A stretch of DNA of 8,924 bases from a virus (lineage: Duplodnaviria; Heunggongvirae; Uroviricota; Caudoviricetes): IMG/VR virus record IMGVR_UViG_2731957997_000009. One strand, 5' to 3'. A program made the position numbers. Of the stretch, positions 3,001 through 8,924 are shown in pieces; the first letter of the stretch is position 1, and each line of letters starts with the position of its first letter.

Positions 3001-6000
3001 ATATTCGTGAATCTTTTTATAGTTCATGTTTATCTCTATCCCTCATAGCTTTATCTACCTTAATTTACCTGCTATTAACCAAAGCTATCAAGCATTATTT
3101 TTCGCTTGAATCGAACGAGTACATCTCAAATTATATACAAAATGCAAGCGATATTAAATGGCTTGTTAAATCAGCCATAGATAATATATATAACTTCTAT
3201 AACAATCCTCCCACTGGTTTAAACCTATACAAGTGGTTACTGATTCCTTTATTAATTCTGATGTTTACCCTAACATATAAATTAAAAACAAGATCAATTT
3301 ATTTGATTTCATCAATCATTTTCATTTATATACTTCCGGTTATATTTATCGTTGTTGTTGGCTCAGGGGCGCCACCTCGCCTGTTTGTTTTAATGCCTAT
3401 AGTAGCAGTAATTTTGTTTTCTTGCTTAAGCAATTTTCGCTCTATAAAATACCTAAACTGCATGTTTTTTTTATTTATTATATTTAATGGCGTTTCAACA
3501 TCCAAAAATCTATTTTTGAATGATACTCTCGCAAGACAGAAAGATATCTCTTTAGCTAAAGAAATATCATACACATCTCAAACAAAAGGCATTTCCCTTA
3601 ACGGAAAATATATATATATATATGGTTCAAACGACTCAGGAAATATGCTCTCCATGAGCGCAGACACTTTTGGAAAATCTTTTTTTTGGTGGGATGGTGG
3701 CAACTATTTTAGGATGGTTGCATTTATGAATTACTATGGAATCTGTAATTGCAAACCAGCAAATAAAGAACAAATAGAGAAGATTTATCCAATTGTGAAG
3801 AGTTTACCTTCCTGGCCGAATCCAGATTCGATAGCTGAAATAAATGGTTTGGTGATAATAAAACTATCAGAGAAAAAAGGGTGGCTTCCATTTAATATTT
3901 AGCTTTGATAGATTTATTTATTATTAAAGAGCGCCTCCCTTTTTCAAGCTCAAAATAATACACACATCAATGGATGCAATCACAAATAGACGGAGGGGCT
4001 GAATGCCCCTTTAAATACCTTACACTCAAATATCTATATACAATCACACTAACCGTTTCTAATATTAGTCAATTAAAAAATTAGCAATACCATTTACAAG
4101 CGTTTACCCAAACTTAACACTGAGAATTGAAGTTTAACCGCCTAATTACATAACACTAGCGACTCTGCTTTTGGGAGGCATGGGTCACTCAGGCCAAATG
4201 ACATCCGACGGTTTCACGATGAACTACGGCAAAAGAATATCAGAGCCCTCATTCCTCCCCGAAAGGCTGAGGGATCCCCAGAAAATTTTCATCAGTAAGC
4301 CAGCACCATACTTCGGTAAGTGCTGGCCAACCGGCACAATATCTTTTCAGGTTGTGCTCGTCGTAGAAGTTCAGGGTTAAATCTCAGGACGTTTTCAGCC
4401 AGCGTCAGAAAAGACAATACTCTTCGTTTTTTGAGACTATTAGCCTGATACTTTAAATGAAATCCTTTATTTTCAAAATGATAACCAAGTAGCCAGAGTA
4501 CGATACTGGCCAGTGTAACCAGTAGACTTAATACCAGAAAACGCTCTCCCCTCCGACTTCTGCTCGCCCGAAGGCCAAAACCAAAGCGTTCACTTTTTTC
4601 ATCCCGAAAGTTTTGCTCTATCTGCATTCTTCGACTGTACAGTTTCATGATTTTTTTGGCATTAAACTCAGCTGTATTGCTGAATATTAACCATGGTTCT
4701 CTGCCTGCGGCTTTTTGTTCTTTTTCCGTTGTTGGTAAGCCCGGCCTCCCTCTGGCACGCCTGCTTTTTCTGCCTTTAGGTGAATGTTTATAAAGATAAA
4801 AATGTCCTTCACACTGCGAGCGTTTTTTCCGGGCCAGGGTTCCCGTCCCCAGGTATTTTGCCTCTGAACTCCCCCTGCACATTTTTATGTCCAGCCACTT
4901 ATCTTTGTCACTATCCAGCCTGAACTTCACTACCCCCCTGATACGACCAATAAAATCCCATCCCTGTGATTTGATATGACGGAACCATGCACTTTGAAAA
5001 CCAGCATCAGTAACAATAACAACACGAGTCCGGGGAGAAATGGCCCCGGAAAGCGCATCCAGAAAAGCGATTTCCACCGCCTCGTTATTTTTTTTTGACG
5101 GGAAGACCTGACTCATCAGGGGGATAGAGCGACCGTCGCAGAGGAGGCTGGCACGAAGGACATGATATTCCTGAAAAGGGTAACCGCTCCAGTCAACAGC
5201 GATAACACACCACGACAGTTTATTTGTCATCATGGATGTAATATTTTTGAATATCAGAGGGATATCATTATGAAGTCGTTTATTACCCAACAGACAGTCA
5301 ACGCGTTTTATTTTATCTTTCACGCGAGCAGGACCGGGTAAATGCCGGCCAATGCTGGTAAGAGAAAGAGATGCGCCACCGACTAAAGCAGCAGCAGAAT
5401 CAATAATGGCATTTTGTCGATACTGATGCGTGGAAGCTAAAGCATTACGGAAAAAAGTCTGGCATACTTTACGGGCAGGCATAGAGGTGATCTCATTGAA
5501 TTTGTTAGCGCAATCAGTAGATCACAAAACTCTATGCCTGTCTTCTTTTCTGGGGATTCCTCAGCCTAAAAGGGAGCGGGCTCTGGTCTGGTGAGTATGC
5601 AGATCGTAAAGGCTATGACCATGGTGCGAGAGTGGCAGGTATGCCAGAAAGAGGATGTATTGCCTGAAACTCTAACCTGATGCAGAGACGATTATCTTGA
5701 ACCTGATTTATTCAACAAAGCCGCTGGCAGAATGTTACGAAAGTTATCGCGGCCGCAGGCTGATTTGATATCGATACTATCGGTGGTTCTGCGGAAGTAA
5801 ATGCCTATATAGTGCGACTTTGAAAAATAATAAATTAATATTGAACTCGTTGATTAATAATCATAAACTTTCAGGCATTCATATTTGCAATGAGTGTTTA
5901 AAAATCACACAAAACTGGAGAGCCTACTTTAAATGTATAATAACAAAATCGACAGCAACAGAAAAATAAGACATGATTGGGTTGATGCTTTAAAATTTCT

Positions 6001-8924
6001 CGGTATTTTTGCTATATATTTAGGTCACCTTGGGTTGGGGGCTGGCAAATTGTATCCTTTTGTTTTTAGTTATCACGTCCCACTATTCTTTTTCGCTGCT
6101 GGTTTTTTTACTATCAAAAAAAATGACTTATCTGTTTTCGATTATATCAAGTCAAAGTTTTACAGATTAATGATTCCATATTTCACTTTTGCATTTTCTA
6201 TATTAATAATAAACACAATTAACTCAGGTGAGACGATTGATTATATATACAACCACATTTATGATATAATATATGGTGTTAGAAATAACCAATTCGTAGG
6301 AACAATATGGTTTATAAACTGCCTTTTTGTTATAATAGCAATTGATGCAATCTTTAGAGAAATAGTCAAGAACAATATAGTGATTTTAATCATATCACTG
6401 TTATCGTTCATGTTGTCACAAACAGTGCTCAATCATAACCCATTACTAGATCCTCAATGGTTTTGGAACATAGACTCCGCTATGGCATACTGGTGGTTAT
6501 TGCCTCTCGGTAGATGTATGTTTTTAGAATTAACACGTGACAGGTTTTTTGGAAAATCTAAAATTGGTTTCATTGTCTTCTCAATTACCGCTATAATGAG
6601 TGCGTATCAACTACTTAACCAGAAACCTTTACTTTTTAAGATTATCTCAATATTCAATGCAGACATAATATCAAGTAGTTATATTCAAGCTATTAATACT
6701 ATTATCACCACGGTAGGCTTGATAATCTTTAATATTTTCATAGCAAAAATAATTTGTGGAAATGACTTTATTGTAAGAGCTGGAAGAAATACTCTTAACA
6801 TATGTGGAATGGAGTATATCACCAAATTATTTATCCCTATGGCTTTAGCAATTATAGGCTTCAGCGTGACTATTCCAAATCCTATCTGCGCAATCATATA
6901 TACCTGTATTTGTGTATATGTATCAGATAAAATTGGCCATTGGCTATCGAGGACAGTCGGTGGGCCATTTTTGATAAAATGATAAAAAGGCGCAATTAAT
7001 TGCGCCTTTTTATAGATATATAGCGCATATTTATGCTCAGATTATACTGTTAAAATTAATGCGCAAATGTTACGGTTTTCTTTCCTAGCAACTGAAGGGA
7101 ATGTTCGAAGTGCAAACATAAAATTACCCCTTCACTGAACAGATATTCAGTCGACCAACACATGAGAAAGAAATACACCAGATGAATTAAAATATCATAT
7201 ACTTATTAATCAAAGAAATAAAAGCATAAACAGTAGGTGGTGACGCTGATAAACTGGCTATAAACAACCTGGAAGGTGATGAGCTATCGCAATATAATTT
7301 ATTGGCGAATTATTTGAAGCCAATTGATAACACCAGTGCTCAAAAGACTCCCCCCGGTAACCATAAGTAGCTAATATCTAGTACAGTTTCGATATCTATT
7401 ATCGTTACTGCGTCGATATAGTCTAAATAGCTGCACCTAATTCTGCCACACTTGTCGTTTACAGATGGGTAATGTGTTGCGTATGGGCAACAAAACTCAA
7501 GCCAGATATAACACAACCTAGCTGAGAACGCCTTCCTGATGCTTCGCCCAGCAAGGGCTGAGCGAAAGTGGAGCACTTTTCTGCGCAGCTATTTAGGACA
7601 GTATTGAGTCATATTGTTTATGTATGAGTTAAGTTTCGTAATATCAATTAAATAAAATAAGTTGAAATCATTGTAGAAGTGAGCATTATACCCAGGCTAC
7701 CTGAACCTACTGAAAAACGAGTATTATTCCAACAATTATCCTAGATTAACAAGTCTATTTATTTGGATGCATAGGCCACTCGGGTTTTACTACATTAACA
7801 CGCATAAGCAGCACCCGATATTTTTTCCATGCCAGTAACAGTTTCGTTTCATCATCTGTTGCCATACCTAAATCAACCGCATCCTGAAGCGGAGCTATTA
7901 CATTCGTTGCCTCTGCTATCAGTGCAGATTTCTTTTCATCATTTATTAAGGCTAATTGTTCTGGTGTTGGAGAAGGACGGTCAACAATGACAGGATGACC
8001 GTTCTCACCACAGGTAATCATTTTTGTTACACTCTGTGCATTAATCAGTGTTTTCCACTCTGATTCCGAGATTTCCACTGCATCATCAGGAATATTGGTG
8101 CCGTGAAATTCAGTCGAATAAAATCCGTTTGTCGATGCAGAATAAAAATATGACATTTTGTTAATATCCCATTGCAATGTAATACGCATCAGCAGATGAA
8201 CCGTATCCTGAACCGGGCGACACAGTAATATTAAATCCAGTGTTCTGGACACTTGTCGCCGATACAGTCGGCTGCCCAGCCGCGCCAGTAACGTTCAATG
8301 TAACTACGACAGCAATTACTCTTGAGAACGTCATCGGGAACCTCATCCCGTATGTTGAAGATACATTCGGGGCACCATTCAACTGACCGCACTGTAAAAT
8401 TAATCCAGACGGAAATTTTTGCGCAGCAGCCGTTACGGTATTAATTGACGCGAACAGGCTCATATCAGGTATCTGATTCGCCCCTGTACCTACATTCCTT
8501 TTAGCTGCTTCTCCCAAACCAAGGTTTTCGAGAGCCGTTTTCACCGTGCCATCCGATTTGATATCGCCAAACGGATTCTTGCGGCTTAACAGCAGCGCGC
8601 GAAGTGCGGTAAGCAACTGATCGTGCCGCCCCTTCTCCAGGCTGGCACCGGATGCCTCCACCACGCTGCAAAGCTCCTCCTGCAACATGTCAAAGTAGTC
8701 ATCATCCAGATCGGTGGCAGGCGTGCCAGTCTGGGGGTTACCACGGGTAAAACCGTTCTTACCCGCGCCGAACTTATCCTTCTTCGCGGTTTTCGTGTCT
8801 ATACGATGCATGGATTACTCTGAGGTGTACTGGCAATAGCGGACACTACCATTTGTTCTTTTTTTAAGCAGCCATCTGATGATATTTTTCCCTGAAGGCT
8901 GCCGGGGAGATATTCCCCAGACGA

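Follow-up and report, generated by a model that had tools for sequence, protein, structure and literature searches.

The acyltransferase-3 gene next to the gtr operon on an SfII prophage remnant is very probably oacD of Shigella flexneri

The acyltransferase gene and its identity

The virus record IMGVR_UViG_2731957997_000009, analysed here over a stretch of 8,924 nucleotides (the window), carries between a glucosyltransferase (gtr) operon and two tail fibre genes an open reading frame (ORF) for an acyltransferase-3 (AT3) protein of 349 residues, and we conclude, with a probability of roughly 95%, that this ORF is oacD, the lysogenic-conversion gene of Shigella phage SfII, lying on a prophage remnant truncated by insertion sequences (IS) in a chromosome of the S. 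flexneri 2a type. The coding sequence of this AT3-only O-antigen O-acetyltransferase (5933-6982, plus strand) opens with ATG and closes with the stop codon TGA at 6980-6982, and a candidate ribosome-binding site, GGAGAG (5917-5922, plus strand), can be read ~11-12 nt upstream of the ATG. An earlier note, made from the sequence alone, had placed the gene at 5933-7012; the ORF and its length of 349 residues were correct, but coding stops at 6982 and the remainder is an intrinsic terminator hairpin of 14 pairs (6982-7013, AUAAAAAGGCGCAAUUAAUUGCGCCUUUUUAU) that lies between an A-run and a T-run. This hairpin, potentially a bidirectional one, folds at -18.7 kcal/mol (z = -5.4 versus shuffles) and is annotated as a rho-independent terminator in the SfII record, in keeping with the strong terminator that had been proposed. 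The gene is also as AT-rich as had been described: its guanine-plus-cytosine (GC) content is 31.6%, and sliding windows stay at 0.29-0.33 over oacD but reach 0.43-0.51 in the flanking IS and gtrAB DNA.

Comparison with the sequenced SfII genome (KC736978) and with S. flexneri chromosomes carries the identification. The DNA at 5600-7300 is 99.8% identical to SfII over the gene SfII_25, labelled 'acyltransferase', and the two proteins agree at 347 of 349 positions (99.4%), the two differences being conservative (V68 and A320 here, I and S in SfII). Of the 58 numbered genes of SfII (SfII_01 to SfII_58), none other than SfII_25 encodes an acyltransferase, and the SfII gene order (int, gtrA, gtrB, gtrII, transposase, acyltransferase, terminator, tail fibre assembly, tail fibre) matches that of the window. 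Among ~50,700 phage records a close copy of oacD occurs in SfII only, while oacD DNA of ~98% identity is present in 11 of 5426 complete Escherichia coli genomes. The exact 349-residue protein is moreover encoded in the chromosome of the serotype 2a strain 2457T (AE014073.1) and in many other S. flexneri chromosomes, and positions 141-8924 of the window are 99.98% identical to the 2457T locus, in which proA/proB-like genes (Pfam Aldedh; AA_kinase plus PUA) lie ~4.6 kb from oacD. The gene is therefore effectively the same as oacD of SfII and S. flexneri 2a, with which it shares neighbours, terminator and an upstream ISSfl9 element, although the prophage in the window, unlike the sequenced SfII, has been reduced to 7.9 kb by IS600. 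That SfII has a single acyltransferase gene, together with secondary citations on oacD, leads us to the name.

The primary paper on oacD is reportedly that of Sun et al. 2014, J Bacteriol 196:3656. In the later literature gtrII and oacD are both located on the SfII prophage between proA and adrA (PMC8973906), and oacD is assigned the 6-O-acetylation of N-acetylglucosamine (GlcNAc) in the O-antigen, which gives group O-factor 10 (PMC8973906, PMC9558356, PMC8952252; citing Sun et al. 2014), so that the substrate and the acetylation position, which the earlier note had considered impossible to infer from sequence, are already on record. Deletion of oacD in 2457T alters the serotype, and isogenic oacD, oacB and gtrII deletion mutants of this strain were tested for sensitivity to phage Sf6 (PMC8973906). 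By 1H nuclear magnetic resonance (NMR), 56% of the GlcNAc is O-acetylated in wild-type S. flexneri 2a; the oacD deletion loses GlcNAc O-acetylation and retains that of RhaIII (a rhamnose of the repeat unit), and an oacB/oacD double deletion has none (PMC8623282). The three genes oacD, gtrII and oacB were also deleted as one locus (PMC9243986), with which the layout seen in the S. flexneri genomes agrees. The knockout and NMR experiment that had been suggested as a check has thus been published, with loss of the GlcNAc O-acetyl signal (PMC8623282), and phage sensitivity assays of the suggested kind have been published as well, as Sf6 tests of oacD mutants (PMC8973906).

The prediction of a second O-antigen modification, O-acetylation, beside gtrA-gtrB-gtrII in a prophage block adjoining the tail fibre genes was accordingly correct, and the functional class was rightly guessed, yet the gene is already characterised and not new. 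The O-acetyl group that OacD adds to GlcNAc defines O-factor 10 in the serotype of highest prevalence, S. flexneri 2a, and the modification bears on O-antigen vaccine design and on phage receptor recognition; all of this is published, and our analysis adds no new biology to it. The practical point is instead an annotation gap, in that a well-studied protein stands under generic public names. These names are 'acyltransferase family protein' and 'fucose 4-O-acetylase and related acetyltransferases' or 'fucose 4-O-acetylase-like'. With generic names and no NCBIfam or PHROG model, the protein can look novel from its sequence alone.

Family, motifs and predicted mechanism

The 349-residue protein matches Pfam PF01757 (Acyl_transf_3) with 47.6 bits (gathering cut-off 31; E = 1.6e-12) over residues 15-290, corresponding to profile positions 2-282 of 326, and this is its sole Pfam domain. 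The hidden Markov model search thereby upholds the AT3 signature that had been read from the sequence, and the reading as a polytopic membrane protein was also correct. A homologue search returned 87 proteins: beyond near-identical Shigella and E. coli entries, the closest are 50-58% identical and come from Enterobacterales (Buttiauxella, Erwinia, Leclercia and Proteus), and a tail at 30-37% identity includes unnamed metagenomic sequences as well as one Clostridium protein. In phages other than SfII, the nearest relative is encoded by a Lysinibacillus phage and listed as a hypothetical protein (31% identity, 60% of the protein aligned). The 31.6% GC of oacD, taken with these distant Lysinibacillus phage, Clostridium and metagenomic homologues, points to acquisition from a low-GC donor.

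Residue conservation was counted in an alignment of 34 homologues, in which the invariant residues include R13, W16, D18, H32, H48, F52, F53, G57, P82, R117, W126, D181 and G193. Several of them fall into the motifs described, with their essentiality, for AT3 proteins, namely R/K-X10-H in transmembrane helix (TMH) 1, FFXISG of the AT3-only O-antigen acetyltransferases, and RXXR at the cytoplasmic end of TMH3 (PMC7448272). The first is K21-X10-H32 in OacD, with K at position 21 in 32 sequences and R in the other 2, and H32 in all 34. The FFXISG-type motif of TMH2 reads F52-F53-F54-A55-A56-G57, where F52, F53 and G57 are present in 34/34 and position 56 is A or S. The RXXR region corresponds to K75-F-Y-R78, with K or R at position 75 in 31/34 homologues and R78 in 16/34.

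From the family alignment, AlphaFold2 gave a confident model (predicted local distance difference test, pLDDT, 93.2; predicted TM-score, pTM, 0.90) that is all-helical, with about ten long helices, short re-entrant segments and no additional domain. We took the helix number from this model, as a crude Kyte-Doolittle helix count was uninformative. The chain of 349 residues stops after the last helix, and neither Pfam nor the model revealed an 11th helix or a second domain; as modelled, OacD is a stand-alone, AT3-only inner-membrane protein. A sequence search of the PDB with OacD returned nothing at E <= 1, while Foldseek gave human HGSNAT (acetyl-CoA-bound) and GWT1 (palmitoyl-CoA-bound) as the top solved-structure matches, with a probability of 0.98-1.0 and a query-normalised TM-score of 0.43-0.51. 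These acyl-CoA-dependent transmembrane acyltransferases are larger and only ~10% identical to OacD, so that the resemblance is one of fold and not of family membership, but at the level of the predicted model it supports an acyl transfer through the membrane.

How OacD might work can be sketched by analogy with the acetyl-coenzyme A (CoA) pore model of OafB (PMC9833829). Acetyl-CoA would come from the cytoplasm into a central pore, where the basic residues K21, K75 and R78 would hold its 3'-phosphate and its thioester would be placed close to H32, the invariant histidine of TMH1; at the periplasmic face, the acetyl group would then be passed to GlcNAc at O-6. We regard these steps as likely for OacD on the strength of the related enzyme. 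As OacD has no SGNH domain, the transfer would have to be finished either within the AT3 domain or with the help of an unknown partner. GlcNAc O-acetylation (O-factor 10), for which published genetics and NMR show OacD to be required, stands alongside the glucosylation of the rhamnose RhaI by GtrA, GtrB and GtrII (type factor II). Transcription of oacD, predicted to be co-directional with the gtr operon, would end at the hairpin 6982-7013.

Among the known enzymes, Oac (OacA) of phage Sf6, which 2-O-acetylates RhaI, is the prototype of the AT3-only type (333 residues versus 349 in OacD), and it is likewise a prophage conversion gene product encoded beside tail genes and ahead of its own terminator. 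Both are stand-alone AT3 proteins with R/K-X10-H in TMH1 and FF..G, and both have basic residues at the TMH3 motif, which in OacD is a lysine variant. When aligned with hhalign, K21/H32, FF..G57 and K75/R78 of OacD fall on R11/H22, FFSISG/G53 and R73/R76 of Oac. However, the similarity is confined to residues 16-151 of OacD at ~18% identity (134 aligned columns, E = 3e-5, probability 72%), two motif positions are K in OacD but R in Oac, and the sugar and the position acted on differ; a tblastn search of all phages with OacD gave no Sf6 match at E <= 1e-3. The AT3 proteins OacB and OacC modify the same O-antigen by 3/4-O-acetylation of RhaIII. OafA and OafB of Salmonella and OatA are fusions of AT3 and SGNH domains; OacD shares their AT3 domain, the source of the mechanistic model with its acetyl-CoA pore, essential TMH1 histidine and basic residues, but in its all-helical model lacks the 11th helix and the periplasmic SGNH domain.

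A further AT3 gene lies in the same chromosomal region. In 7/8 S. flexneri loci a gene for a 390-residue AT3 protein follows an integrase beyond the right IS600 copy, ~4.7 kb downstream of oacD (12274-14958 in locus L002), whereas the 2457T locus (L009) carries proA/proB-type Pfam genes at this place. From its position the 390-residue protein is presumed to be OacB (oacB element, PMC8973906). The OacD family has no detectable similarity to it by hhalign (E = 0.4, probability 0.1%), and the published OacB-OacD identity, 13%, is the lowest among the S. flexneri Oac proteins (PMC8952252).

Weighing the assignment to oacD

Several observations weigh against the assignment to oacD. The equation of oacD with SfII_25 rests on secondary citations plus the presence of a single acyltransferase gene in SfII. 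No database source names the sequence OacD: an exact-sequence cluster look-up returned generic names and not OacD, and scans of the protein against NCBIfam and PHROGs gave no matching family model. Within the motifs, K75 replaces the first RXXR arginine and R78 is kept in just 16/34 homologues; RXXR has been described as 'highly but not absolutely conserved' (PMC7448272). With HGSNAT and GWT1, Foldseek gives weak E-values (0.06-0.1), even if the matches are consistent in probability and TM-score. Lastly, a consensus promoter scan of 5577-5932 found no site reaching 9/12 matches, and promoter-like sites in this region are as frequent as expected (12 observed versus 9.6 ± 3.2 in shuffles), so that the candidate promoter of its own with which the gene had been credited receives no support. 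The best candidate found by eye, TTGAAC-17 nt-TAAACT at 5841-5869, has 8/12 matches and was rejected as below the threshold. Transcription reading through from gtrII is unlikely, as the IS and a terminator at about 4309-4351 intervene.

The absent names and models, the 18% identity to Oac over 134 columns and the lack of profile similarity to the presumed OacB would also fit an Oac-type relative acting on another sugar or position than the described enzymes, the undescribed specificity variant that had been suggested. We consider this extremely improbable and that suggestion not borne out, as the protein is identical to that of 2457T, a strain whose oacD deletion has a published phenotype, and shares 99.4% identity with the one acyltransferase of SfII. 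The promoter result bears on a different idea, namely that oacD is intact but unexpressed, a silent relic in a degraded prophage. H-NS commonly silences foreign DNA that is AT-rich, and this general expectation joins the lack of a promoter-like site of at least 9/12 between the IS end and the ATG, the ISSfl9 element upstream and the shrinkage of the prophage to 7.9 kb in favour of silence. Yet packaged SfII likewise has ISSfl9 at this site, the arrangement of 2457T is the same (99.98% over 141-8924) and deleting oacD there changes the serotype (PMC8973906), and the 56% GlcNAc O-acetylation of wild-type S. flexneri 2a is lost upon oacD deletion (PMC8623282); silence of the gene is thus very unlikely.

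The partial character of the published acetylation (PMC8623282), about 56-65% of GlcNAc, might instead be explained if oacD were a contingency gene switched by slippage. A T7 tract (6103-6109) and an A8 tract (6116-6123), which had been pointed out earlier and are present and in frame as read directly, do lie early in the gene (6103-6123, plus strand), where they encode G-F-F-T-I-K-K-N(D) at codons 57-64. Their number and length are, however, within chance: at least two A or T runs of >=7 are obtained with P = 0.18 in mononucleotide shuffles, and when synonymous codons are shuffled with the protein unchanged, P is 0.39 for runs >=7 and 0.76 for a run >=8. Across the 12 copies compared (eight S. 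flexneri genomes, SfII, two E. coli and the window) both tracts are the same in 12/12, and the truncated cluster members examined stay in the native frame through them. One of these, a protein of 69 residues, had been considered as a tract frameshift and was ruled out, as it runs in the native frame through both tracts and ends downstream. Non-stoichiometric O-acetylation is, besides, usual among O-antigen acetyltransferases, with 63-80% for RhaI and RhaIII by other enzymes (PMC8623282). Nothing suggests a regulatory role for the tracts or supports phase variation, which we regard as exceedingly improbable, and the assignment to oacD of SfII stands as the preferred reading.

A separate matter is the acceptor range of OacD, which might be wider than the S. 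flexneri O-antigen backbone. The ~98% identical copies in E. coli prophages, some of them with a GtrC of the DUF6056 type, and the homologues of 50-58% identity in Buttiauxella, Erwinia, Leclercia and Proteus speak for this possibility, which we nevertheless hold to be rather unlikely. Should these proteins indeed acetylate GlcNAc, or some other sugar, of unrelated O-antigens, OacD would stand for a portable clade of acetylases, for the most part unannotated and without a curated HMM name.

The prophage remnant and its neighbours

SfII prophage DNA occupies 892-8820 of the window and is 99.66% identical (blastn) to positions 16968-24898 of KC736978, that is ~7.9 kb of the 41.5-kb phage. Its left part holds, all on the plus strand, gtrA (1157-1519; Pfam GtrA_DPMS_TM; SfII_29), gtrB for the bactoprenol glucosyltransferase (1516-2445; Pfam Glycos_transf_2; SfII_28) and gtrII for the serotype II-specific glucosyltransferase of 486 residues (2442-3902; Pfam Glucos_trans_II; SfII_27). 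On the minus strand at its right end lie the tail fibre assembly gene (7755-8189; SfII_24; Pfam Caudo_TAP; phrog_188) and the short tail fibre gene, whose product has a gp53-like C-terminal domain (8161-8811; SfII_23).

Between gtrII and oacD sits the IS4-like element ISSfl9 (4267-5564, minus strand; transposase at 4292-5482, minus strand), which has a DDE_Tnp_1 match and terminal inverted repeats and owes its name to RefSeq annotation. It is bordered by an imperfect target duplication of 9 bp (CCCGAAAGG at 4258-4266, CCTAAAAGG at 5565-5573), and in E. coli YZ_2_2 the site is empty, with a clean, uninterrupted target in the alignment (6950-6985 of locus L010). The packaged, infectious SfII genome has ISSfl9 at the same site. 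RefSeq annotates the target DNA around the element as a fragment of an IS5/IS1182 transposase pseudogene.

IS600, a name taken from a plasmid annotation, occurs at both ends of the window. At the left (1-540), positions 141-540 are the 3' part of one copy and 1-141 the 5' end of an oppositely oriented IS600, which abuts an internal position of the former; as an intact IS600 is found at this position in 8/8 S. flexneri genomes compared, including 2457T, the arrangement suggests either a nested insertion of IS600 particular to this strain or a rearrangement mediated by IS. At the right, the end of an inverted IS600 copy (8820-8924, minus strand) truncates the prophage within the tail genes. The description of the locus as one IS-bracketed unit therefore holds for its two IS600 ends, but not for an uninterrupted gtr-oacD unit, which ISSfl9 splits.

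Upstream of gtrA, positions 521-895 encode a C-terminal integrase fragment of 124 residues that does not belong to the SfII integrase; it has ~73% DNA identity to the integrase adjoining the 390-residue AT3 gene. SfII homology begins at 892, with the last bases of the SfII int gene, and the junction at ~892 is probably the attachment-site boundary of the prophage, next to an older integrase remnant.

The two E. coli contexts differ in the glucosyltransferase genes. In YZ_2_2 (4101-8383 of L010) an oacD of ~98% identity stands beside gtrA, gtrB and a gene for a 413-residue DUF6056 protein that replaces gtrII, and in SCU-124 (locus L011, 2544-8382) an intact oacD of ~98% identity stands beside a frameshifted gtrB, gtrII and ISSfl9. 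From these two arrangements, acetylase and glucosyltransferase cassettes appear to be exchanged independently.

For the ~740 nt from the oacD terminator to the tail fibre assembly gene (7014-7754), neither SfII nor E. coli has a gene annotated; the only ORF there (7340-7576, minus strand, 78 residues) has no PHROG match, and neither this spacer nor the window as a whole gave a match in the Rfam scan. Phages SfI, SfIV and SfV share the tail fibre module with the window from about 7774-7794 on only, and since the shared module starts there, SfII is the only one of these Sf phages with ISSfl9, oacD and the ~760-nt spacer on the right of oacD.

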